A stretch of DNA of 64,000 nucleotides from Dehalococcoidales bacterium (GCA_020342155.1 CP070842.1:1108594-1172593), one strand, 5' to 3'. Shown: positions 7,058 through 43,827, counted from the first letter of the stretch. The notes: generated from the letters alone by a model not told the origin. Made by a program: numbers and translations.

Positions 7058-8683
7058 CTAGCGCCGGCTCGCCACTTCCTGCAACACCTCGGGCTTATGT
7101 ATGACATAGCGTCGGTTCTTCCCGCTCAAAATGTCTGACTTTCGAAAGCTTCGTAATAGCTTCCGTACATCGGCTACGGCAATCCCGGCCATGCCGGCAA
7201 GCTCCGATATAGAAAGAGAAACCGATATTGCCCACCCATCCGGCGTCTCCGTGCCGTGTGCCCGCATCAGCTCTAACAGGGTCCCAGCAAGACGGGCCGG
7301 TGGATTGTGGAAGATAACACTTTCCAGATGATAATTCAGGTCACGGATGCGCTGGGTAAGTACACCGAAGATACCGATAGCCGCCTCAGGATACCACCTC
7401 AGAAACTCAAGGAAGTCCCCACGTTCCAGGATAAATGTCTCCGTTGACTCGACTGCAGTGGCCGAAGCAGAGCGGGGTTTCTCATCCAGGAGCGACATCT
7501 CGCCGAAAAAATCGCCCGGACCAAGGTGGGCCAGCGTCATACTCTGGCCTTCTTTCCCAGGCACGCTTATCCTAACATCACCACTTCTGATTATGTAAAG
7601 AGCTGAGCCGACTTCATCCTTTCGGAATATGGTCTGCCCCTTCCGGTACCGCCTTTCCTGAAGCTTTTCCGAAAGCTCAGCCAGGTCATCGGAAGATATC
7701 GAGGCAAACAGAGGAATGCCTTTCAATGCCTCGGCCTTCCCTCGCAGAATCCGGGTATATGAGACGTGTTCCGGTACGGGAGTGCTCTCTGCATCCACCA
7801 GCTCACGCACAGAGGTCTTCAACTCGGTAAGAACCTCATCGATATCGGACGGACGGTTCGCCGGGTTCTTGGCCAGCATCTTCAGGATCAATGAGCTAAG
7901 GCGTTTCGGAATTCCCGGATTCCGCACATCCGGACTGGCCGGTGTTACCTGAATATGCTGGGAAACGAGGGATATGTCATCACTCAACGAAAAGGGAGGC
8001 TGGCCCGTTAGCGTTTCATACAAGACCACACCGAGGGAGTAGATATCACTCCTCGCGTCCACCTCCCGACCGAGGGCCTGTTCAGGAGCCATGTAAGTCG
8101 GTGTACCTCCGACCGAAGCGCCCGGCATGGTTGACTGGTCCTGCTGCATCCTGGCAATACCGAAGTCCATCAGCTTGACCTCATCGCCAACCACAATGTT
8201 CCCCGGCTTGATATCGCAGTGAATGACGCCGTGCCCGTGAGCATATGAGAGGGCAGCAGCAACCTTCGCGATAATTTCCAGCGCTTCGCTGATAGTGAGC
8301 CTCTTCTTACCATCATAGGCACCCTCTCGTATCTCCAGAATCGTGCTCAGGAGTGTCCCCGAGACGTATTCCATCACGAGATATGCCTGGTCTTCATACC
8401 AACCACAATTGTATAATGTCACTATGTTAGGATGGTTCATCCGTGCCAGTGACCTGGCCTCCCGGTAGAATTGTCCCGGGTTCTGGCGGCTGACCGTCCC
8501 CGGTTTAATTAGCTTTATAGCAACCGACCTGTCAAGCAACTCGTCTGTCGCCAGATAGACAGAGCCCATTCCTCCCTGCCCTAGGAGCTTTTCAACCCCG
8601 TACCGGTCGGCAATTGATTTGCCGACTATGCTCAAGGTTTGTAGCTCATCGTCCATTAACCACGGATTCTCTTCTTCATCCAT
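7058..8683 (-). CDS. Hanks-type Ser/Thr protein kinase fused to a complete Crp/Fnr-type module (cNMP-binding domain + HTH)
   Basis: Kinase motifs are GQGGMGSVYLA, VAIK, HCDIKPGN, DFG and APE. These are followed by a cNMP-binding beta-barrel (GDFFGEMSLLD..RSASA) and a C-terminal Crp-like HTH (ISELAGMAGIAVADVRKLLRSF). The start is taken at the ATG after GAGGAA and remains uncertain up to 8758. Confidence 0.8.
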   Translation of the reverse strand: MDEEENPWLMDDELQTLSIVGKSIADRYGVEKLLGQGGMGSVYLATDELLDRSVAIKLIKPGTVSRQNPGQFYREARSLARMNHPNIVTLYNCGWYEDQAYLVMEYVSGTLLSTILEIREGAYDGKKRLTISEALEIIAKVAAALSYAHGHGVIHCDIKPGNIVVGDEVKLMDFGIARMQQDQSTMPGASVGGTPTYMAPEQALGREVDARSDIYSLGVVLYETLTGQPPFSLSDDISLVSQHIQVTPASPDVRNPGIPKRLSSLILKMLAKNPANRPSDIDEVLTELKTSVRELVDAESTPVPEHVSYTRILRGKAEALKGIPLFASISSDDLAELSEKLQERRYRKGQTIFRKDEVGSALYIIRSGDVRISVPGKEGQSMTLAHLGPGDFFGEMSLLDEKPRSASATAVESTETFILERGDFLEFLRWYPEAAIGIFGVLTQRIRDLNYHLESVIFHNPPARLAGTLLELMRAHGTETPDGWAISVSLSISELAGMAGIAVADVRKLLRSFRKSDILSGKNRRYVIHKPEVLQEVASRR

Positions 8684-8830
8684 ATCCGATTCCTCGGCAA
8701 TTGGGTTATGCAACTTTAACAAAGGGACCATCAGTATGGCAAGACCCAAACAGCCCAAAGGCCAGAGAAAAGCAAAAGACTCCTGAAAAAGTAGGGTGAT
8801 TATCGCTAGGTATTAGCTTCTTTCACCAGA

Positions 8831-12709: not shown

Positions 12710-12785
12710 TGGTACCCTGGTGCGACTCGGACGCACGACACACGTCTTAGGAAACCGTTGCTCTATCCTACTGAGCTACAGGAGC
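12710..12785 (-). tRNA. degenerate copy of tRNA-Arg(CCT), probable pseudo-tRNA
   Basis: It aligns end to end with the intact gene at 30782-30858. However, it lacks one G in the 3' acceptor strand, has TCCGA instead of TTCGA in the T-loop, and has a broken anticodon stem (ACGGT / GACGT). Confidence 0.6.
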
Positions 12786-12840
12786 ATGTAGCCCGGTTTC
12801 GGGCAACCTCACCAGACACTCGCGTTGTACGTTGTCCACA

Positions 12841-17149: not shown

Positions 17150-17190
17150 AGATCAGTAAATTGGGAGATTGTTAAGTCAAAGGTAAAATC

Positions 17191-17233
17191 TGGTACCCCT
17201 AGTGCGACTCGAACGCACGGCACGCGGTTTAGG
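17191..17233 (-). repeat. 43-nt copy of the 3' half of tRNA-Arg(CCT) (att-like direct repeat)
   Basis: tggtacccctagtgcgactcgaacgcacggcacgcggtttagg matches 30782-30824 except at 3 positions. It ends in the anticodon loop. Confidence 0.7.
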
Positions 17234-17416
17234 TAATCACTCTATGGTTTGCCCTCTTCCGCCATTAGTCAAGAGTCTGTATAATGGCGAAGAGATGCCC
17301 AACTACCCGAGAGATATGACTGCATCCAGGGTTCATATTACCACAGCGACGATTTCAACCGGGCAATAATCGCCATAACCGAGTCAGGCAGATATAACCG
17401 AAAAGGAGTTCAGATA

Positions 17417-18211
17417 ATGGATTATGAGGACATCATCTATACCGAAGATGACGGCATCGCCACCATGACCCTTAATCGACCGGATGAAATGAATGCCCTC
17501 ACCCCCGGTATGCGGGAAAGCATGTACCAGGTAATCGAAAATATTACGAAGGATAAAACTGTGAGAGTGCTGATTATCACCGGTGCCGGTCGTGCCTTTT
17601 GCTCCGGTGCCGATGTTAAATCACTGGCTGGGAATGCTAACCGTCCAGTCAGCCAGAGAAGACCCGCTAGAACAGGCAGCGGTCGTGTCTCAGTTCATGT
17701 CCTCATGCAGAAATGTGAGAAACCGATAATTGCGGCAGTTAATGGAGTGGCCGCAGGTGCCGGGCTCGACCTTGCCCTAGCCTGTGACATCAGGATTGCT
17801 TCGGATAACGCCAGGTTCACAGAAGTCTATATACGCCGAGGACTTCTCCCTGTTGAAGGAGGTATTTATTTATTACCAAGAATTGTCGGAGTAGACAAAG
17901 CCTGTCAACTGATCTGGACAGGTGATATGATTGATGCCAGGGAAGCCGAGCGCATAGGGCTTGTAACTACGGTCATTCCCCATGACGAATTGGAAATCGC
18001 TACCAGAGAACTGGCCGAGAAGCTGGCCAAAGCAGCCCCGCTGGCGATTCAAAGGGCTAAACGTGCTATATACGCCGGGTTGGACATGAATCTGGAATCA
18101 AGTATGGAGTACATTCAGCCACTAATGAGAGAAATCATGCATTCGGAGGACCATAAAGAGGGAACGAAAGCATTTCTGGAAAAGAGAGAGCCAATATTCA
18201 GGGGAGAATAG
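17417..18211 (+). CDS. enoyl-CoA hydratase/isomerase (crotonase) family protein
   Basis: It has crotonase motifs (ITGAGRAFCSGADV, AAVNGVAAGAGLDLALACDIRIA) and an AAAAGGAG RBS. Confidence 0.85.
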   Translation: MDYEDIIYTEDDGIATMTLNRPDEMNALTPGMRESMYQVIENITKDKTVRVLIITGAGRAFCSGADVKSLAGNANRPVSQRRPARTGSGRVSVHVLMQKCEKPIIAAVNGVAAGAGLDLALACDIRIASDNARFTEVYIRRGLLPVEGGIYLLPRIVGVDKACQLIWTGDMIDAREAERIGLVTTVIPHDELEIATRELAEKLAKAAPLAIQRAKRAIYAGLDMNLESSMEYIQPLMREIMHSEDHKEGTKAFLEKREPIFRGE

Positions 18212-18263
18212 GCAGCGATACTAAAAAATGCCTACCCCCCCCCACTCAACATTGGAGGGATAA

Positions 18264-18380
18264 TTATCTTCGTCAGGACATGCAACAGTGGCATTTACAC
18301 TTGACACCTACAGTCATGTAGTGCCTGGGTTGTAGGAGGCTGCTGCAAGAGCTTTTGATGAGAATCTCAAAATCATTACT
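18264..18380 (+). pseudogene. relic of the C-terminus of a tyrosine recombinase (phage-type integrase)
   Basis: It translates to SGHATVAFTLDTYSHVVPGL*EAAARAFDENLKI. This is the GH..(x)TLDTYSH catalytic-Tyr box with a TAG where homologues usually have Gln. No upstream part of the gene remains. Confidence 0.6.
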
Positions 18381-18402
18381 CATTCGGGCGGAGGATAGAT
18401 AA

Positions 18403-19101
18403 ATGTCATATAAACGTTTGAATTCATATAAGGGACATCTTGGGCCTGCACAAGTCAGCGAAGGCATGAACCTTGCTCGTAAAAACGCTATTCGTTTGCT
18501 GGAGGATGCCAAAATCCTTTACGAAAATAACCGATATCCGTCCGCCACTGCCTTAGCTATTCTTTCCATTGAAGAATCTGGTAAAACGTCTATTCTCCGT
18601 CAGTTGTCTTTAGTTAAACCAGACGAAGAACTAAAAAATACTTGGAAGGAATATCGTTCTCATACCAAAAAGAACGTGCTGTGGACATTGCTTGATATGG
18701 TAAATAAAGGCGCACAACAATTGGATGACTTTAAACCTATGTTTGACCCTGCATCAGAACACCCTTATGTTTTGGATAATATTAAACAAATCAGTTTTTA
18801 CACTGATTGCTTAGGGCAAGCCCACTGGTCCAATCCATCTGAAATAATAAACAGGAATCTAGCCTCAAGTTTGATATTTGTTGCAGAAGCCTTATCTGTT
18901 GGTTATGAGATAACTACAAAAGAAATCGAGTTATGGATTAAACATCTCGGCAATGCAGATATTTCTTATGAAAGTCAGAAAAAGGCAGTACTTAATTGGT
19001 ATTATGATATGGAAAATAACGGTCTGTTGCCATCTGATTATAGCTTCACAGACGTAATGAAATGGCTTGGTTTCAATATCGACGATATATCCTCGGAATA
19101 G
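18403..19101 (+). CDS. AbiV-like (HEPN-type) abortive-infection family protein
   Basis: The N-terminal pattern NLARKNAIRLLEDAKILYENNRYPSATALAILSIEESGK matches what I recall of AbiV-family proteins. The gene is AT-rich and sits between two att-like repeats. Confidence 0.55.
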   Translation: MSYKRLNSYKGHLGPAQVSEGMNLARKNAIRLLEDAKILYENNRYPSATALAILSIEESGKTSILRQLSLVKPDEELKNTWKEYRSHTKKNVLWTLLDMVNKGAQQLDDFKPMFDPASEHPYVLDNIKQISFYTDCLGQAHWSNPSEIINRNLASSLIFVAEALSVGYEITTKEIELWIKHLGNADISYESQKKAVLNWYYDMENNGLLPSDYSFTDVMKWLGFNIDDISSE

Positions 19102-19159: not shown

Positions 19160-19171
19160 GCTTTAAAAATC

Positions 19172-19216
19172 TGGTACCCCTGGTGCGACTCGAACGCACG
19201 ACACACGGTTTAGGAA
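19172..19216 (-). repeat. 45-nt copy of the 3' half of tRNA-Arg(CCT) (att-like direct repeat)
   Basis: tggtacccctggtgcgactcgaacgcacgacacacggtttaggaa is identical to 30782-30826. It shares extra flanks (aaaatc on the left, taYggtttRccc on the right) with the copy at 17191. Confidence 0.8.
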
Positions 19217-24097: not shown

Positions 24098-24185
24098 TAG
24101 TTGTACCATTACCGCAAATCATGGAATTTATCATTTTAAGAACAATCCCAAGATTGTAATGCTGAACAGGTTATAGAAATCGATC

Positions 24186-25166
24186 ATGTTAGCTGCAGTA
24201 ACCGGCGCCGCCGGACATCTGGGAGCGAATTTGGTTCGTTCTCTAATAAATAGAGATTGGCAAGTTAGAGCTGTTATCCATCATGATACCAAAGCTCTTG
24301 AGGGGCTTAATATTGAACGTGTTTCAGGAGACATCCTTGAGGAGGAATCTCTTAAGAGAGCATTAAACGGCGTTGATGTGGTCTTTCATCTTGCTGGACG
24401 AATATCAATTGTGAGCTGGGACCGTAAAGAGGTAGAAGCAGTCAATATTACCGGAGTGAAAAACGTGGTGGAAGTTTGTAAGTCCGCTGGAGTGAAAAGG
24501 CTAATACATACGAGTTCCTTTCATGCTCATAAACAGGAACCACTTGATGAACCACTTGACGAATCACGCCCACTCTATGACGGGAAATATCCGCCCTACA
24601 ACCACTCCAAAGCTGAAGGAGAAAAAATAGTTCGGGCAGCAATCGAGCAGGGTCTTGACACAATTATCATCAATCCGGGAGGAATGCTGGGCCCAAATGA
24701 CTTCAAACCTTCTCACTTCGGTTCAACACTACTTTCAATAGCTAAGGGTAAACTGCCGGCCCTGGTCAATGCTGGATTGTGCTGGGTAGATATTCGGGAC
24801 GTTGCTGAGGGTATGATAATTGCCTGCGAACATGCTGAAGCCGGGTCAAAGTTCATATTGAGCGGTAACTGGGTATCACTGGTAGATATAGCTCAAAAAG
24901 TAGCCACCATGATTGGCGTTAAACCACCTCCAATGGTATTACCTATGTGGATAGCCAAATCAAGTGCACCTTTAGCAACACTCCTCGATCAAATAAGAGG
25001 CAAACGTCCCCTGTTTACTCCAATTGCCATGAAAGAACTCGAGAGTAATCATAATATTAGTTATGCGAAGGCTAATAGAGAACTGGACTATGAGCCCCGA
25101 CCATTGGAGCAAACCTTATCTGACACCATAGACTGGTTTCAGAGAAACGGATTTCTAACTACATGA
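24186..25166 (+). CDS. NAD-dependent epimerase/dehydratase family (dihydroflavonol-reductase / HpnA-like)
   Basis: It has the VTGAAGHLGANLV motif and the YxxxK motif (YNHSK). Confidence 0.8.
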   Translation: MLAAVTGAAGHLGANLVRSLINRDWQVRAVIHHDTKALEGLNIERVSGDILEEESLKRALNGVDVVFHLAGRISIVSWDRKEVEAVNITGVKNVVEVCKSAGVKRLIHTSSFHAHKQEPLDEPLDESRPLYDGKYPPYNHSKAEGEKIVRAAIEQGLDTIIINPGGMLGPNDFKPSHFGSTLLSIAKGKLPALVNAGLCWVDIRDVAEGMIIACEHAEAGSKFILSGNWVSLVDIAQKVATMIGVKPPPMVLPMWIAKSSAPLATLLDQIRGKRPLFTPIAMKELESNHNISYAKANRELDYEPRPLEQTLSDTIDWFQRNGFLTT

Positions 25167-25179
25167 TATTGACACAATT

Positions 25180-25938
25180 ATGAATGACTTGGTATTGCGT
25201 TACGTATTGATTGCCTGGATTATCGTCGCGATTCTCGTGTTTATTTCCCTATTCTTCATAGACGCTCCTTACGGACGCTATTTTAGGCGTAGCTTTGGGC
25301 CATCTATCAAGGGAAGGCTCGGCTGGATGATTATGGAAGCACCTGCTCTACTGGTATTTGCTGCCATTTTTGTTGCAGATACTGGAACGGTAACTGTCGT
25401 ACAGATCACTTTCCTCACTATGTGGACAACTCACTACCTAGATAGATCATTCATCTATCCAATCAAACTAAGGATTTCTCCAAAACCATTACCACTAATC
25501 ATACTAATAACCGGTTTTGGATTTAACGTTACGAATGCCTACCTGAACAGTGAATACATTATTATTAATGCCCCAAAATACTCCGAAATCTGGCTATATG
25601 ACGCACGCTTCATCGCCGGTCTCGCCCTCTTTGCATTGGGCTTTATTATGAATCGCCATTCTGATTACATACTGTATCGTATAAGAAAAACGTTACGACA
25701 ACAATATCATATCCCGCAGGGAGGTTTATACCGATGGGTATCCTGTCCAAACTACCTTGGGGAGATTATTATGTGGTCCGGCTGGGCTATTAGTACGTGG
25801 TCGCCAGTAGCCGCCGCGTTTTCATTGTGGACCGTAGCCAATTTAGTACCACGAGCAAGGTCGCATCACCAATGGTACCAGAAACATTTCGTTGATTATC
25901 CCGGTGAAAGGCGTGTCATCATACCCTGGATATGGTAG
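25180..25938 (+). CDS. steroid 5-alpha-reductase-family membrane oxidoreductase
   Basis: It is polytopic. The C-terminal GGLYRWVSCPNYLGEIIMWSGWAI is the family signature. Confidence 0.65.
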   Translation: MNDLVLRYVLIAWIIVAILVFISLFFIDAPYGRYFRRSFGPSIKGRLGWMIMEAPALLVFAAIFVADTGTVTVVQITFLTMWTTHYLDRSFIYPIKLRISPKPLPLIILITGFGFNVTNAYLNSEYIIINAPKYSEIWLYDARFIAGLALFALGFIMNRHSDYILYRIRKTLRQQYHIPQGGLYRWVSCPNYLGEIIMWSGWAISTWSPVAAAFSLWTVANLVPRARSHHQWYQKHFVDYPGERRVIIPWIW

Positions 25939-26008
25939 CTAGCAGTTCACATAAGTCGCAGATTTAGGTATTATTAAGTACAGGTTTTTCTAGGGGAGGT
26001 TCGTTGAA

Positions 26009-26542
26009 ATGGAGACTCAGCATATAATTCTTCTAATTATCAATATCGTAGGAGGTATTGCCGTAATTGGTAGCTATATCGTTGGAATCAAAACACAACC
26101 GGGTGGGGCCAATGCCCTCTGGGGTGGAGTTCCACCGAATGTTAGACCAGTATACGGTGTTTCAATGGTCCTGTCAGCTCTCGGATACTTCGCTTTTCTC
26201 TATTTTATCCTATTCGAAATCGTACCTGACGAAGTATTAATTGGTGGACGATTTGATTTCAGTGTTTTTTACGTGATATTCCTCGTTATTCTCTTGCCCT
26301 CAGCATTATGGATGCCACTTACTAACGTGTATATCGGTAATCATAGAACAGGTATCAAGATCGGAGTTCGTATTATCCTGGCACTGGTAGGCCTGGCTTC
26401 GATAGCCCTTGTGTGGTCGATTCTCAGTCTGGAAACTAGAACTCCAAACGTTCCCTACTGGCTCGCGGTCGCCGGCAGTAGTTATTTTGCTTTCCATACC
26501 GCTATTTTAGACGGTATAATCTGGTCAATACTATTTAAATAG
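26009..26542 (+). CDS. integral membrane protein, unknown function
   Basis: It is 177 aa with about five hydrophobic helices and a GGGGAGG-type RBS. Confidence 0.5.
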   Translation: METQHIILLIINIVGGIAVIGSYIVGIKTQPGGANALWGGVPPNVRPVYGVSMVLSALGYFAFLYFILFEIVPDEVLIGGRFDFSVFYVIFLVILLPSALWMPLTNVYIGNHRTGIKIGVRIILALVGLASIALVWSILSLETRTPNVPYWLAVAGSSYFAFHTAILDGIIWSILFK

Positions 26543-26610
26543 GTTTAACCGAATAACTTGTAGTGAATCGTGAATCGAAAATGTATAGGAAGGAAAATCA
26601 AGAGATAGCC

Positions 26611-26955
26611 ATGAAAGTCGACTTCTATTGCTGGGCAAAATGAAATACCTGTCGTAAGGCGAAGGAGTATCTTTCGCAAAAGAACCTGGAAATCAACGAG
26701 CGTGATTTCTTCAAGAATCCCTTCAACCGGACGGAGATCGAGGAGTTGCTCCAAGGGAAATCTGCTTCTGTGATGTTCAACTTCAGAAGCCCCAGCTTCA
26801 AGCAGCTCGGTCTGGAGCGAGATAAACTTAGCGATAGTGAACTAGTCGATTTTATGTTAAAAGAACCAAGACTTGTCCGCAGGCCTGTGGTTCGTATTGG
26901 TGACAGAGTATATTATAGCGCTGATAAGTCAGTTCTGGAGGGTTTAGTAGGTTAG
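26611..26955 (+). CDS. ArsC/Spx/YffB-family thioredoxin-fold protein with in-frame TGA at codon 11 (candidate selenoprotein, otherwise a pseudogene)
   Basis: The sequence reads MKVDFYCWAK-TGA-NTCRKAKEYL... in a single frame through to the ORF-track fragment 26746-26955. The TGA (26641-26643) aligns with the first Cys of the family CxxC motif. The downstream RSPSFKQLGL and EPRLVRRPVV match the family. Confidence 0.55.
26659..26677 (+). other. hairpin 15 nt downstream of the in-frame TGA (possible bacterial SECIS)
   Basis: GCGAAGGA-GTA-TCTTTCGC forms 8 pairs including one G-U. There is a GU in the apical region. Confidence 0.35.
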
Positions 26956-26956
26956 T

Positions 26957-27418
26957 ATGGAGCGGTTGAACCCGGAGAAACTCCATGTAACGTACTTAAC
27001 CGGCACTACTCCTGAGAGTCTCGTGTTACCCAGACGTTACACGCTGACTCACTCTGATATTTCAGGCAAGCTCTTTCTCTCCATCGGTAGTGATTATGAT
27101 ACACGGAAGACTTCTAAATTATATACCAGACTAATGAGGGATGAAGTATTGGCAGAATTAGTAGACGAGGGAGAAGGTCCTGTATTCAGGGTGCACTGTC
27201 ATGTCAGTGGAGGATTTGTTTTTGGTAGGGCTAAGTGGCGGTATGATATCTTCCAATCTGAACTACCGCTCGTGTTGGAAGCTATAAGATACGGTGATAG
27301 GACACTATTTGAATATAATCCAGAACTCGACAACAGCCTGATATTCATAAAATTCCATTCAACTGATAGCAAGTTTGATAAGGTCGAAAATTGGGGTACC
27401 ATGCTCAGATACAACTGA
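26957..27418 (+). CDS. Staygreen (SGR, Mg-dechelatase) family protein
   Basis: RRYTLTHSDISGKL, RDEVLAE and VHCHVSGG are hallmark SGR motifs. The ATG lies 1 nt after the ArsC-family stop codon. Confidence 0.8.
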   Translation: MERLNPEKLHVTYLTGTTPESLVLPRRYTLTHSDISGKLFLSIGSDYDTRKTSKLYTRLMRDEVLAELVDEGEGPVFRVHCHVSGGFVFGRAKWRYDIFQSELPLVLEAIRYGDRTLFEYNPELDNSLIFIKFHSTDSKFDKVENWGTMLRYN

Positions 27419-27512: not shown

Positions 27513-27554
27513 GAGCGGGCGCTCAGTCACAAGGAGATTCTGGAGGCGTAGGGT
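27513..27554 (+). repeat. cassette-junction repeat, copy 0 (3' part only)
   Basis: gag cgg gcg ctc agt cac aag gag att ctg gag gcg tag translates to ERALSHKEILEA*, which aligns with copies 1-3. Confidence 0.65.
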
Positions 27555-27576
27555 CTCTCAGTAAAGGAGAAGGACC

Positions 27577-28395
27577 ATGCCATTCGCTAAAGTTCGTGAT
27601 ATTCAGATGTATTATGAAATCCACGGGGCAGGGCCTCGTCTGCTCTGCATCAGTGGTACGGGTGGTGATCTTAGACAAAAGCCAAATGTTTTTGATTCAC
27701 CACTATCAGCCCACTTTGAAATCCTAGCCTATGATCAACGCGGTCTTGGTCAAACAGATAAACCAGACATCCCTTATACTATGACGGACTACGCCTTAGA
27801 TGCCGACAGCCTACTAGATGTCATTGGCTGGGAAGGCTGCTTTGTAATCGGAGCATCGTTCGGTGGCATGGTGGCCCAAGAGTTCGCATTACGCAGTCCC
27901 CAACGGGTGGAGCGGTTGGTACTAGCCTGTACGAGTAGTGGTGGTGCAGGAGGGTCGTCATACCCGATTCACGAATTTGTTGATCTATCTCCACGGGAAA
28001 GGGCACTTCGTTTCCTGCAACTCAGTGACACCCGACTTGATACGGCATGGCAATCCGCAAATCCAGAACGGTTCGCTCAACTGATCGAGCAAATGGTAGA
28101 AGGATATGTGATCGGCGCAAACGAGTCAGGCCAGGAAATAGGTGCTCGCCGCCAGTTAGAAGCGCGTATCGGACACGACACTTATGATCGCCTTCCCAAA
28201 CTCCAGATGCCTGTTTTTATCATTGGTGGCCGCTACGACGGTATAGCTCCAGTCTCAAATCTCGAAGCAATGCACAAGCAGATACCTCATGCCCGTCTAG
28301 AGCTGTTCGAGGGTGGGCATATGTTTATGCTTCAAGATGCCCGGGTGTATAGTCGCATTTCGGCGTTCCTGCATGATGAACTGGACCAAGCATGA
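27577..28395 (+). CDS. alpha/beta hydrolase
   Basis: It has the nucleophile elbow GASFGG, a C-terminal GGHMF His region, and an AAAGGAGAAGG RBS. Confidence 0.85.
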   Translation: MPFAKVRDIQMYYEIHGAGPRLLCISGTGGDLRQKPNVFDSPLSAHFEILAYDQRGLGQTDKPDIPYTMTDYALDADSLLDVIGWEGCFVIGASFGGMVAQEFALRSPQRVERLVLACTSSGGAGGSSYPIHEFVDLSPRERALRFLQLSDTRLDTAWQSANPERFAQLIEQMVEGYVIGANESGQEIGARRQLEARIGHDTYDRLPKLQMPVFIIGGRYDGIAPVSNLEAMHKQIPHARLELFEGGHMFMLQDARVYSRISAFLHDELDQA

Positions 28396-28437
28396 TATAC
28401 GGAATCCCATGTGCTCGGATACCTCGACTTTGTCATC

Positions 28438-28520
28438 AATGAAATCCGCGAGATGGATATGCAGCCCTCACTGGAGAGGGCGCTGAGAGAAAAGGAGACT
28501 CTGGGGGCGTAGAAAGATAC
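28438..28520 (+). repeat. cassette-junction repeat, copy 1
   Basis: It encodes ...NEIREMDMQPSLERALREKETLGA* (micro-ORF 28459-28512) and contains the hairpin GCCCTC-actgga-GAGGGC (28464-28481). Confidence 0.75.
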
Positions 28521-28622
28521 AACAACCGTAATTCTGAAGCTTGTAATCTCCTTGACAACACACCCTTCAAGCCCTACCATTAGCCCTGGTCACATATTAC
28601 TGCTGAATGGGGGGACAATACC

Positions 28623-29693
28623 ATGTCCAGTGGTGCAGCCATCGGACGTATCGGTATACTCTGGCGGGGTGATACAACAAAGCCACCTCCACCTCGCGAA
28701 GAGAACAGGTTAAGAGGCGTTTTCGACGCCTTGGAAGCCCGTCAAATCGTTGGGGAGCCGGTGGTGTATTCGGATGAAGCTGCTGATCAAGTGTACAAAC
28801 AGCTTATCGACTTGGACGGTGTACTCGTTTGGGTGGATCCGATTGTCAGAGGCCAAGACCGGTCACGGCTGGATGCCATACTACGGGACGTGGTGTCGCA
28901 GGGTGTGTGGGTAAGTGCCCATCCCGACATCATCATGACGATGGGCACAAAGGAAGTCCTCCACCGCACACGTGACCTAGGGTGGGGAACGGATACCCAC
29001 CTATATCACACTCCCGACGAGTTGACGGAGGGACTTTTCCGGCTTCTCCCGTCAGGCCCGAGGGTGGTGAAGCAGCATCGCGGTAACGGAGGTAATGGCA
29101 CGTGGAAGGTGGAGTTGATACGCAGTGCCTCCCCTATAAATGAAATCGCCGTGCGGGTACTTCACGCACTGCGCGGTAGCGTGATTGAGGAGATGCGGCT
29201 TGGTGACTTCGTCCAGCGTTGTCAGCCCTACTTCGACAATTCGGGCTGTTTAATCGACCAGCCGTTCATGGAACGTTTGGGAGATGGGATGATTCGCTGC
29301 TATCTTGTACAAGACAGAGTAGCCGGTTTCGGATTTCAGTTTGTCAAAGCGCTTTTAGCTCCGCCACCAGGGGTCAACCCTGAAGATGTGGAAGTCCCGC
29401 CGCGCCTGTACTACGGGCCGCAGAAACCCGAGTTTCAGGTGATAAAAGCCATACTTGAATCGGAGTGGATTCCCCAGATGCAGCGGTTGCTTGATATTGA
29501 CACAGAGTCGCTTCCGGCTATCTGGGATGCCGATTTCCTGTATGGGTTGAAGACCGCGACTGGCGAGGATACCTATGTACTGTGCGAGGTCAACGTTCAG
29601 TCGGTATACCCTTTCCCGGAGGAGGCATTGGAACCGTTGGCACAGGCTGCCATGGAGAGGATGGTCGTCGCCAAGAGTATACGCCAACGCTGA
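28623..29693 (+). CDS. ATP-grasp-like protein, unknown substrate
   Basis: VVKQHRGNGGNGTWKV and a late YVLCEVNV segment resemble ATP-grasp nucleotide-binding elements. The family assignment is tentative. Confidence 0.5.
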   Translation: MSSGAAIGRIGILWRGDTTKPPPPREENRLRGVFDALEARQIVGEPVVYSDEAADQVYKQLIDLDGVLVWVDPIVRGQDRSRLDAILRDVVSQGVWVSAHPDIIMTMGTKEVLHRTRDLGWGTDTHLYHTPDELTEGLFRLLPSGPRVVKQHRGNGGNGTWKVELIRSASPINEIAVRVLHALRGSVIEEMRLGDFVQRCQPYFDNSGCLIDQPFMERLGDGMIRCYLVQDRVAGFGFQFVKALLAPPPGVNPEDVEVPPRLYYGPQKPEFQVIKAILESEWIPQMQRLLDIDTESLPAIWDADFLYGLKTATGEDTYVLCEVNVQSVYPFPEEALEPLAQAAMERMVVAKSIRQR

Positions 29694-29743
29694 GAAAAGT
29701 CACAGGCGCTCGTACCTGATCAACCAATATAATATTGGGATTA

Positions 29744-29802
29744 AGATGCAACCTTCACTGGAGAGGGCACTGAGGCACAAGGAGATACTAGGGACGTAGG
29801 GC
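29744..29802 (+). repeat. cassette-junction repeat, copy 2
   Basis: The micro-ORF 29746-29799 encodes MQPSLERALRHKEILGT*. The hairpin is retained with a U-G pair (CCTTC...GAGGG). Confidence 0.75.
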
Positions 29803-29889
29803 TCCGGTTATATTCAACACCTCTTCCAGATAGTTGCCGTATAGTACTAAAGAAAGAAATATTATCTATAGATATCGGGAGCCTCAACA

Positions 29890-30675
29890 ATGGAGAATCG
29901 ACGAAATAATTCCCAACAAGCCTCCCACCCTGGAGGAGATACCCAGTTCTGGCAAGATGAGAGAGTGCAGAAGTACGACTACCAGCAGCAGCTTCTCTCT
30001 GAGAAAAAGGAAGATGTACAAGCAAATATCACCAGAATAGTAAATTACTTCTGTCAGTTGCATTCGATAGGTGAGCCCAAAATACTCGATGTTGGGTGCG
30101 GCCCGGGAACCCCGATGACCCTATCCTCATATATTCTAGATAGAGTTCCGCGAAGTATCTTGGTTGGAGTAGATTCGTCAGAACAGATGGTTGAAGCTGC
30201 TAAAGGAATCCTCGTACCGAAATATGGTAACAGGTTTTCAAGTTTTGTTAGTGACTTTAACTCCGACAGTTTCTGGATGCCAGAGATTGATAGCAAGTAT
30301 GACTTTATCGTATCGTCTGGCACACTTCACTACCTGTCAGATAAGAGAACACTTCCATTCATGAAGGAAATTTTCAATCATATCAAGGACAGGGGTGTAT
30401 TTGTTAGTTGTATGGGAAGCCACCCCACAATTCAAGAGATTGCTGAAATGGTACATCTCTTTCGTGTAGAGTTTACCTACAATCAGCTTGAAGAAGAGAA
30501 ACGCCCTAGGGAGTTCCCAGAGTTTAAGAAGATATTTGAAGAAACAGATAGAAAGGCAAATGTAAATTGGCGGAGCTCCAAAGATTGGTTAGGCGCTATA
30601 CAGAGTGCCGGATTCAGGAAAGTCGATATTGTCTGGCATCTGTGGGTAAGAAGCATCTATCTGGCGCTAGCCTGA
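29890..30675 (+). CDS. class I SAM-dependent methyltransferase
   Basis: It has motif I ILDVGCGPGTP and the post-I acidic motif VGVDSS. Confidence 0.8.
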   Translation: MENRRNNSQQASHPGGDTQFWQDERVQKYDYQQQLLSEKKEDVQANITRIVNYFCQLHSIGEPKILDVGCGPGTPMTLSSYILDRVPRSILVGVDSSEQMVEAAKGILVPKYGNRFSSFVSDFNSDSFWMPEIDSKYDFIVSSGTLHYLSDKRTLPFMKEIFNHIKDRGVFVSCMGSHPTIQEIAEMVHLFRVEFTYNQLEEEKRPREFPEFKKIFEETDRKANVNWRSSKDWLGAIQSAGFRKVDIVWHLWVRSIYLALA

Positions 30676-30682
30676 TATGTAG

Positions 30683-30765
30683 AACGAGTTCTGCGAGATG
30701 AAGATGCAGCCCTCGCTAGAGAGGGCACGGAGGCACAAGGAGATACTGGGGGCTTAGAAAGGTAC
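30683..30765 (+). repeat. cassette-junction repeat, copy 3, ending about 17 nt from the tRNA 3' end
   Basis: It encodes NEFCEMKMQPSLERARRHKEILGA* (micro-ORF 30704-30757) and contains the hairpin GCCCTC-gctaga-GAGGGC. Confidence 0.75.
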
Positions 30766-30781
30766 CACGAATTTAACAATT

Positions 30782-30858
30782 TGGTACCCCTGGTGCGACT
30801 CGAACGCACGACACACGGTTTAGGAAACCGTTGCTCTATCCTACTGAGCTACAGGGGC
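30782..30858 (-). tRNA. tRNA-Arg (anticodon CCT), CCA encoded
   Basis: The reverse complement folds by hand as a 77-nt cloverleaf. Its parts are acceptor GCCCCTG/CAGGGGT, D-arm GCTC-AGTAGGATA-GAGC, anticodon arm ACGGT-TTCCTAA-ACCGT, T-arm GTGCG-TTCGAGT-CGCAC, and A-CCA. Confidence 0.9.
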
Positions 30859-39714: not shown

Positions 39715-39923
39715 TGCTACCCGCCGGAGACTGACTGGCATGCGCCAGAACTGTTCTCACCTATCATCAAGATAACTCAGTCTGGCAGAGTGTGCCATTG
39801 GTAGGTATACCTAATTAGATTCGAGACAGTTCCCTAGTTCTAACACGAAGGCTTCTGGAGATGGCCTGCCACCTAAGAATTGGAGTCCAGCTAGTCTCAT
39901 CTTTCCTTTTGCAAGCAGGGTGT

Positions 39924-40140
39924 AAACCAAGGGGGACACCCCCTTGAATTCCCGTTCCAAAGGGGTTACACCCCTCTGGACTCCCCAAAACGGTGTGGGA
40001 TCAATTCTCTAGCAGGGACCATTCGCATCTAAAAAAGAGCCCGAAGCCGGGGGCACAAATGCACTTCCCTAGAGACAAGGTCTCCAAATGCTGCTAAAGG
40101 GTAGTCAAAGAGGGGCTGTACCCTATCTGAACGAGCACAT
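39924..40140. repeat. hairpin-rich inverted repeat, copy 1 (partner 43515-43707, inverted)
   Basis: By manual alignment, its reverse complement matches copy 2 with a handful of substitutions and small indels. Nested palindromes are CAAGGGGGACACCCCCTTG, CCAAAGGGGTTACACCCCTCTGG and TAGAGACAAGGTCTCC. Confidence 0.8.
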
Positions 40141-43525: not shown

Positions 43526-43707
43526 TTGACTCCCCTTCAGCAGCATTTAGAGACCTTGTCTCTAGGGAAGTGCGTACCCCCGGCTTCCGGCTCTTTTTTA
43601 GGTGCGAATGGTCCCTGCTGGAGAATTGCCCCCACACCGTTTTGGGGAGTCCAGAGGGGTGTAACCCCTTTGGAACGGGGTTTCAAGGGGGTGTCCCCCT
43701 TTGGTTT
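43515..43707. repeat. hairpin-rich inverted repeat, copy 2
   Basis: See copy 1. Weaker homology continues on both sides (about 43360-43428 and 43716-43790). Confidence 0.8.
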
Positions 43708-43827
43708 CCCATTCATCTCGAAAAGATAGTGAGATAGCCAGGGAAAGAAAGCTATAATACTCTTGCTTGTTCCTGCTTGCCTGCACATGATACTATCAGG
43801 TGAAATACGGTTAGAACAGGCGGTGTC

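Follow-up and report, generated by a model that had tools for sequence, protein, structure and literature searches.

A 64,000-nucleotide stretch of a Dehalococcoidales bacterium genome (GCA_020342155.1, CP070842.1:1108594-1172593; the whole stretch is called the window below) carries, between positions 27513 and 30765 and next to a tRNA gene, four direct copies of a short coding-like sequence that ends in a stop codon, and the question raised by this locus is where such gene ends without genes come from. The copies (c1, c2, c3 and c4; 39-100 nt, all in the same orientation) are probably leftover 3' ends of multi-copy STAND NTPase genes, displaced as single genes recombined into the gene tails, with the window holding an orphan array whose parent genes were deleted.

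The four copies had been described in an earlier note made from the window sequence, and they were recovered at the same places by two approaches: a repeat search of the window, which returned one 86-nt family (three copies) and one 41-nt family (four copies), and nhmmer searches with a DNA profile of the 3'-terminal 450 nt from 47 full-length family genes (E values from 5e-10 to 2e-26; Table 1). A degenerate 35-nt pattern matched three times in the window and not once in 100 shuffles, and no further tail copy was found in the 64 kb by blastn-short on DNA or by a peptide hidden Markov model on the six-frame translation. The open frame and the stop codon were intact in all four copies, and an ATG was present in three. 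The hairpin reported by the note (GCCCTC-N6-GAGGGC) formed six of six pairs in c2 and c4 and kept four Watson-Crick pairs plus one G-T pair in c3; its left arm was missing from c1. The note's statement that no copy has an upstream gene body also held within the window, where profile and translated searches found none for c1 to c4. Two candidates were rejected: the open reading frame (ORF) at 7058-8758 on the minus strand was not a parent, since it encodes a kinase-cNMP-Crp protein whose match (7953-8613) did not extend beyond the kinase domain common to both, and the repeat D3 (26180 vs. 28414) was a chance match within a membrane-protein gene.

A full-length parent was found outside the window. 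Joined end to end as a protein query, the tail peptides matched 795 proteins, many of them 61-aa ORFs or TPR_12 fragments ending in ..MQPSLERALRHKEILGA or ..HLDFAINEFREMKMQPSLERALRHKEILGA, and some of them chimeras with unrelated N-termini; an exhaustive search with a 129-aa fragment gave 2725 cluster representatives, among which members of 1046-1272 aa matched at their extreme C-terminus. The copies correspond exactly to the C-terminal end of the coding sequence in a large family of STAND NTPases (~1050-1300 aa; Pfam domains DZR, Pkinase or Guanylate_cyc, then AAA_16, then TPR_12), and the stop codons of the window copies coincide with the stop position of this family. Two hundred and forty-three genomic tail-encoding matches were confirmed, nearly all in metagenome-assembled genomes (MAGs) of Dehalococcoidia, and one such MAG, W156, contained at least 14 family loci. 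The last ~25 codons (..INEFREMKMQPSLERALRHKEIL[GK]A*) were strongly conserved as coding DNA among paralogues and species, and the detectable short fragments of family genes were tail pieces. Tandem full-length paralogues were present 0.2-2.7 kb apart at three of the related loci (designated here by L and a number: L024, L049 and L059), and many loci contained full-size pseudogenes with frameshifts and fragments of intermediate length (250-330 nt).

Other rearrangements of the family were also observed. A 5.1-kb insertion containing a full-length family gene in W156 (L017, 5087-10204) corresponded to an empty site in the window (~39111/42825) and in L088 (16654/16665), so the STAND genes themselves vary in presence between close relatives. 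A 5.5-kb insertion that distinguishes L074 from L082, located 36 nt past the stop codon, had no connection with the duplication of tails. In L005 (5908-7604; also in L006 and L007) a large serine recombinase gene abutted a 270-nt tail fragment, an arrangement suggestive of a family gene interrupted by an integrative element ~90 codons ahead of its stop. Mini-ORFs (L001, 9917-10186; P0011) joined the first 11-14 codons of a family gene (the zinc ribbon) directly to its last 38-74 codons, and a 64-nt 5' stub of a family gene lay within an inserted segment in L032 (10283-10346); taken together, these forms suggest internal deletions and histories of greater complexity.

The layout seen in the window recurred elsewhere. 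About 20 of ~80 distinct loci showed a full-length or pseudogenised family gene followed downstream by one to six short tail copies on the same strand (three in L047, six in L078, two each in L009 and L056). All tail copies in these arrays reached the stop codon, with a 5' start at any distance between 39 and ~165 nt from it. The 28 inter-tail segments (0.36-1.56 kb) each contained at most one sizeable ORF, and a few contained none; 24 of the 27 ORFs of at least 60 aa were co-oriented with the tails, and the remaining three (minus strand, L078) were judged spurious. For comparison, the first ORF downstream of full-length family genes in general was on the plus strand in 22 cases and on the minus strand in 19. 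The ORF ended a median of ~17 nt before the next stub, or overlapped it, the stub itself being ~75 nt long. The cargo comprised seven alpha/beta hydrolases together with GNAT, amidohydrolase, beta-lactamase-like, cupin, SnoaL, DinB, MBL, SRPBCC, flavodoxin and methyltransferase genes, and toxin-antitoxin pairs (ParDE or BrnTA-type) were found at L008 and L077.

Small orphan fragments of family genes came from the 3' block in ~45 cases, from the 5' block in two and from internal blocks in one to three. Part of this excess may be a matter of detection, since no other part of the gene is as well conserved in its DNA. All but three of the ~45 short copies (the minus-strand copies of L031, L039 and L040) were downstream of a family gene or its remnant and on the same strand, and no terminal inverted repeats were seen. 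The copies are therefore not a repeat of the repetitive extragenic palindrome or miniature inverted-repeat transposable element type, for which the earlier note had expected both orientations and random contexts.

The stop codon and the 5' leader varied together with the downstream cassette, and one hydrolase cassette (97% amino acid identity) was the first of its array in L083 and the second in L047, two loci whose parent genes correspond. No conserved motif was found at the junction between ORF and stub or past the stop codon beyond subfamily-specific native flanks, and neither a promoter nor a terminator was found within the tail; in L001 an AAGGAG inside the tail formed the ribosome-binding site of the next gene. 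In L065 (972-1147) and L083 (1571-1765) the tail was followed by a ~195-nt leader with a promoter-like motif, placed before different genes (a hydrolase and a C_GCAxxG_C_C-type protein), and the homology stopped at the ribosome-binding site. Two neighbouring stubs of L009 (6423-6510 and 7113-7187) shared three unusual substitutions (CTGGCGAGGGCGCTGAGGCACAGGAAGAT) over their whole length.

How a cassette arrives was seen in one pair of loci, in which the second gene of L049 is the empty site and L032 its filled counterpart. In L049 the single tail had two matches in L032, one at the 3' end of the parent gene (88.6%) and one at the stub with its native flank and ~200 nt downstream (79.8%). The parent-side tail of L032 was L049-like up to ..GGAGCGA (..CTGGAGCGA) and foreign beyond, and the stub was foreign up to the same point, then identical to L049 in 27 of 27 positions, and then continued into the native flank. 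The alignment of the two loci shows an exchange inside the tail, in which the incoming DNA supplied the replacement end. The resident gene of L032 retains its open reading frame with a chimeric end, and its original end was moved downstream together with its native 3' flank. The same order was evident from the native flank GTCCTTGTCTCAGAGTCGTCGGG, which followed the stop codon of array-less parents and, in the arrays of L047 and L032, followed the last stub only.

The crossover position was not the same in the events that could be mapped. For the hydrolase stubs of L083 and L047 the drop in identity (93% to 74%) was 5' of the GCCCTC-N6-GAGGGC palindrome, and the identity switch of L032 was 3' of it; on these two switches, located on opposite sides, the crossover position appears not to be fixed. 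The palindrome was perfect in 12 of 47 functional parents, had four pairs or fewer in 26 of 47, and was absent in the array-bearing loci L056 and L078. Single strands of the tails in both orientations folded no better than shuffled sequence (z from -1.5 to +1.7) and formed only a 6-bp stem. A linked recombinase was absent within ~10 kb at 13 of 14 array loci, the remaining locus (L009) having a Phage_integrase gene for a divergent tyrosine recombinase beside the parent gene, and none was found near the arrays of the window (ORFs scanned from 9.8 to 33.9 kb), L001 or L008. Homologous recombination from tail to tail fits these data better than site-specific integration, because there is no linked recombinase and no attC-like fold and because the crossover positions differ.

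The following sequence of events is proposed. The first stubs would be left by paralogues whose bodies had been deleted. An insert located between two tails could then be copied into any other tail by homologous recombination or gene conversion, for instance during break repair or after DNA uptake, with no dedicated site-specific recombinase as the catalyst. The incoming DNA would supply a chimeric gene end, the old end would be displaced downstream with its native 3' flank, and the displaced copies would decay. The earlier note had offered as one reading that the copies are displaced 3' ends of a gene repeatedly targeted by small integrating elements, each bringing its own diverged tail. This reading is essentially correct, as the displaced ends and the replacement tails agree with the parent family and with L032 and L049, but integrating elements with a site-specific integrase are without support, given that no recombinase is linked and the crossover points differ.

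The features of the window (Table 1) can be placed in this scheme. The region 24185-27418 (epimerase, membrane protein, ArsC-like and Staygreen genes) was collinear with positions 3783-6202 of L026 (W156 Contig4), where a full-length STAND gene of 1279 codons directly follows the Staygreen gene. Since L026 keeps the gene at this place, the parent gene of the window was probably deleted there and c1 left behind; c1 may accordingly be taken as what remains, on the parent side, of a STAND gene without its body, and c3 as the parent-side tail of a second deleted gene. Copies c1 and c3 were followed by a cassette-type leader (TAGGG..) and copies c2 and c4 by native flank (TAGAAAGrTACmAC). Over 110 nt, c2 was 90% identical to the tail and flank of a full-length W156 gene in L030, with which it had the rare ..EMDMQ.. 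variant in common, and for c4 the right end with its flank matched the last stub of the L021 array and the flank of that stub (92% identity over 37 nt). Neither L021 nor L030 was accepted as orthologous to the window locus, since the match was confined to the tails and 11-18 nt of flank, and no tRNA was present there. From the order of these leaders and flanks the window would consist of two decayed loci, one made of c1, the hydrolase gene and c2 with its flank, the other of c3, the methyltransferase gene and c4 with its flank.

The hydrolase gene starts 25 nt past the stop codon of c1, with only a ribosome-binding site upstream, and its product was 37-39% identical to the cassette hydrolases found in the same position after the tail in L047, L065 and L083. 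The methyltransferase protein was 100% identical to a protein of a Dehalococcoidales MAG at NCBI, and a homologue (66% identical) in L172/L173 had no tails nearby. The module with the ATP-grasp-like gene was different. It has a promoter-like TTGACA-17-TACCAT in its leader (28552-28580) and occurred with the same ends at L091, L092 and L093 (80-84% nucleotide identity), in none of them with a tail copy; an exact-protein lookup of its product returned no record. This gene is probably an ordinary promoter-bearing gene located between the two decayed loci, and of the three single-gene cassettes listed in the earlier note only the hydrolase and the methyltransferase genes are retained as such.

Table 1. 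Tail copies and neighbouring genes in the window (positions counted from its first nucleotide), with nhmmer matches of the parent 3'-end profile.
Feature	Position	Strand	Description	Profile match
Staygreen-family gene	26957-27418	+	Pfam Staygreen, E = 5e-50; synteny anchor for the start of the putatively lost parent gene	
c1	27513-27551	+	39-nt stub (..ERALSHKEILEA*), stop codon 27549-51, no ATG	27513-27562, E = 5e-10
Alpha/beta hydrolase	27577-28395	+	Pfam Abhydrolase_1, E = 4e-24; putative cassette gene	
c2	28413-28531	+	100-nt tail (28413-28512) and 19 nt of native 3' flank (AAAGATACAACAACCGTAA), stop codon 28510-12	28413-28527, E = 2e-26
DUF6815 / ATP-grasp-like module	28532-29721 (ORF 28623-29693)	+	Pfam DUF6815	
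c3	29739-29799	+	61-nt stub (..IKMQPSLERALRHKEILGT*), stop codon 29797-99	29739-29816, E = 1e-17
S-adenosylmethionine (SAM)-dependent methyltransferase	29890-30675	+	Pfam Methyltransf_25, _12 and _11; putative cassette gene	
c4	30684-30781	+	74-nt tail (30684-30757) and native 3' flank (AAAGGTACCAC..), stop codon 30755-57	30684-30777, E = 9e-24
tRNA-Arg(CCT), functional	30782-30858	-	ARAGORN and Rfam, 65 bits	

The array lies at the tRNA-proximal edge of a tRNA-Arg island, the flank of c4 running up against the 3' end of tRNA-Arg(CCT), and the other boundary of the island is a tRNA 3'-half copy at ~19.2 kb; tRNA-Arg(CCT) is the integration hotspot bounding the island that carries the array. 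In addition to the functional gene, the window contained a decayed full copy (12711-12786) with 135 nt of its 5' flank preserved and, at ~17190-17236 and ~19170-19216, two partial copies of ~47 nt from the 3' end, all four on the minus strand. Such full and half copies are the pattern left by tandem islands integrated at a tRNA. In the close relative L088 the tRNA occurred once, and the enoyl-CoA hydratase gene was separated from it by only ~2 kb. Between the two half copies of the window, a ~2-kb unit (17417-19101) contained genes for enoyl-CoA hydratase and AbiV/HEPN abortive infection.

Three further observations were made in the window. A contig from an independent short-read assembly of the same organism (L171, Logan SRR14739666, 989 nt) corresponded to positions 29760-30748 and broke inside c3 and c4; the tails thus act as assembly-breaking repeats, which probably explains the many tiny contigs with 61-aa tail ORFs. 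Inverted repeats at 39915-40030 and 43600-43713 (95% identical over 99 nt) surrounded a 3.6-kb segment that was inverted with respect to the relatives L088 and L017. The ArsC/Spx-family gene at 26611-26955 (plus strand) contained an in-frame TGA in the context FYCWAK-TGA-NTCRK, which its W156 orthologue in L026 keeps (..FYCWVK*NTCRK..); the conserved codon suggests a putative selenocysteine at a redox-active position.

Several points weigh against displacement by recombination between tails. Only one clean pair of filled and empty sites was resolved, and two or three events supplied all of the crossover positions. Tails of 40-160 nt that are 80-95% identical make inefficient substrates for homologous recombination, which by itself leaves unexplained both the co-orientation of the 24 ORFs and their tight packing against the next stub. 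The loci compared were 20 kb long and would miss a trans-acting recombinase encoded elsewhere in the genome. Detection may favour the 3' end of the gene, as said above for the orphan fragments. The substitutions shared by the two L009 stubs are not predicted by a single reciprocal exchange; they require extra gene conversion between stubs or the reuse of one cassette tail, and hint at either. Finally, the division of the window into two loci depends on a flank similarity of 11-18 nt past the stop codon.

Strict cassette polarity and compactness keep a capture of the integron type as the main alternative. In such a process the tail, perhaps its palindrome, would act as an attC-like site for a recombinase provided in trans, and promoterless cassettes in a single orientation would be expressed from the STAND gene. 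The compact single-ORF cassettes, with all 24 of the ORFs judged real in the orientation of the tails, are as this would predict, and so are the ORF-less units of L078, a cargo akin to that of chromosomal integrons (GNAT, alpha/beta hydrolases, cupin, DinB, SnoaL, ParDE or BrnTA-type pairs), the stop codon and 5' leader that travel with the downstream cassette, and the hydrolase cassette found at position 1 in L083 and 2 in L047. The tyrosine recombinase beside the L009 parent gene and the location of both mapped crossovers within a few bases of the palindrome can be added to these. The tails themselves do not resemble attC sites: they had no core boxes (RYYYAAC ... GTTRRRY) and no long hairpin, and their folding did not differ from that of shuffled sequence. 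The palindrome is imperfect in most parents and lacking in two array loci, the two switches flank it on opposite sides, outside the 6-nt spacer, and no recombinase was present within ~10 kb at 13 of 14 array loci or in the window. The 5' limit of the stubs, moreover, varies continuously between 39 and ~165 nt with no motif at the junction. A capture of this type is consequently considered unlikely. A broader proposal drawn by analogy, a gene-capture platform of Dehalococcoidia in which the STAND 3' end would be a docking site comparable to attI/attC, the cassettes would carry partial tails, the polar arrays would be co-transcribed, the exchange would be due to a recombinase in trans or to homing-like conversion, and the outcome in both cases would be an integron-like system made of coding sequence, with neither IntI nor attC, is put forward tentatively, with perhaps a modest chance of being correct.

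Decay without any insertion would make each stub the rest of a separate tandem paralogue whose body was deleted and whose last tens of bases were spared. Copy c1 fits this description, given the full gene after Staygreen in the syntenic W156 locus, and the tandem full-length paralogues of L024, L049 and L059, the full-size pseudogenes and the intermediate fragments also speak for it. It does not account for L032 and L049, where one ancestral tail is split into two complementary chimeras around an insert, nor for the ~45 orphan fragments from the 3' block against two from the 5' block and one to three from the middle. The inter-tail ORFs judged real are all co-oriented, vs. about half and half for the general neighbours of parent genes, and neutral trimming from both sides would not leave the observed asymmetry of a ~17-nt median gap on the left of a ~75-nt stub. 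In the case of L078, seven tandem genes of 3.8 kb would have to have collapsed to 3 kb. Decay as the sole process is therefore very improbable.

The remaining possibility was that the copies are conserved for their own sake, and this was addressed by comparing codon positions. Mismatches to the family consensus at positions 1, 2 and 3 amounted to 7.0, 4.5 and 28.2% in the 47 full-length parents and to 14.2, 13.4 and 29.1% in 37 displaced copies, the latter mismatching ~2-3 times as often as the parents at positions 1 and 2; the window copies had 12, 6 and 18 mismatches, respectively (81 sites each). The frame was broken in 12-14 of the 37 displaced copies (~35%), eight being frameshifted and four having premature stops. 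The displaced ends evolve under relaxed constraint, and since they are relaxed at positions 1 and 2 and often broken, the third-position signal was inherited from functional genes. The window copies are decaying fragments and not micro-protein genes. Most differences between copies had been placed at third positions in the earlier note and ascribed to purifying selection: the bias is real but weaker, with 50% of the mismatches at position 3, which is not most, and the coding-type divergence is genuine but was acquired in the paralogous or orthologous parents and not in the copies, which are themselves relaxed.

That the copies are functional, either as micro-proteins of 12-33 aa or as a selected RNA or DNA hairpin signal (two further readings of the earlier note), is supported by the open frame and stop of all four window copies, the ATG of three, the hairpin, complete in c2 and c4 and retained in c3 with a wobble pair, and the ribosome-binding site within the L001 tail, but it is extremely unlikely in view of the broken frames and the excess of mismatches at positions 1 and 2 among displaced copies, their variable 5' ends, the absence of the ATG and of the left hairpin arm from c1, the hairpin of four pairs or fewer in 26 of 47 functional parents and its perfect form in only 12, folding z-scores near zero, and a scan of the window with Rfam at gathering thresholds that returned tRNA only and no family for the copies. 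A diversity-generating retroelement was rejected: no reverse transcriptase domain was present in the scanned ORFs, and the differences between copies involve all four bases.

Displacement of STAND gene ends by tail-to-tail recombination, the reading preferred here, would have several consequences if it proved general. Accessory enzymes would be gained, shuffled and lost at 12 or more equivalent docking sites per genome in streamlined, mostly uncultured bacteria, and this cassette-like plasticity, operating without an integron integrase or attC sites, would be invisible to tools of the IntegronFinder type. The many spurious ORFs of 45-130 aa that metagenome protein catalogues list as "hypothetical" or "TPR" (hundreds of clusters) would be accounted for, as would assembly breaks at tail repeats. 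The repeat of the window would become a readable history of two lost genes, two captured genes and one tRNA-Arg island. A search of the literature for Dehalococcoidia together with cassettes, integron or attC yielded no description of such a system.

The arrays can be compared with four groups of known systems. Integron arrays consist of co-oriented compact cassettes that mostly contain one ORF, frequently lack a promoter and all end with a conserved repeat, and clusters of attC sites lacking an integrase are known as CALINs. The tail arrays resemble both in their compact, co-oriented and mostly single-ORF segments (28 segments, 24 of 24 real ORFs, a gap of ~17 nt), in the ORF-less units, in the accessory cargo (GNAT, hydrolases, toxin-antitoxin pairs) and in the presence of the same cassette at different positions; they differ in having neither attC structure nor core sites, neither intI nor attI, and a repeat that is a coding fragment of the gene heading the array. 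Minimal mobile elements of Neisseria are exchanged by homologous recombination on conserved flanks, which belong to two different flanking genes and include no duplicated repeat, and the pdif modules of Acinetobacter are exchanged by XerCD at 28-bp Xer sites in alternating orientation. These are likewise small gene modules without a recombinase of their own that are exchanged by host functions, whereas in the arrays described here one conserved gene end is duplicated in direct orientation.

In the same bacterial class, the ssrA-specific genomic islands of Dehalococcoides are tandem islands split by direct repeats of the 3' end of their target (PMC3146451). The tandem layout is the same, and the tRNA-Arg 3'-half copies of the window are the tRNA version of it. 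The ssrA islands, however, measure several kb or more, their target is a single-copy RNA gene repeated over ~20 bp, and they have their own serine recombinase beside this repeat. The tail cassettes are without a recombinase, and their target is a family of protein genes.

Tandem accretion at the 3' end of a protein gene is known from ICESt1, ICESt3 and the related cis-mobilisable elements (CIMEs) at fda in Streptococcus (PMC3234194, PMC5812530, PMC7563491). There, too, direct repeats derive from the 3' end of the target gene, the target keeps a functional end, and integrase-less units pile up in tandem with the oldest end furthest from the gene. Direct repeats of a 3' end and an end rebuilt by incoming DNA were equally found here, in the chimeras of L032 compared with the empty site of L049 and in the native flank after the last stub. 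ICESt1, ICESt3 and the CIMEs have short fixed att cores, a cognate tyrosine integrase and a single-copy target gene, whereas the units described here are single-gene segments of 0.4-1.5 kb, the target family exceeds 12 copies per genome, the repeat is 39-165 nt long, no integrase is linked, and the crossover appears not to be fixed, the two mapped switches (a small sample) flanking the palindrome on opposite sides. A multi-copy protein-gene target, single-gene units without an integrase, variable coding repeats and crossovers that appear not to be fixed are combined in none of the systems compared.

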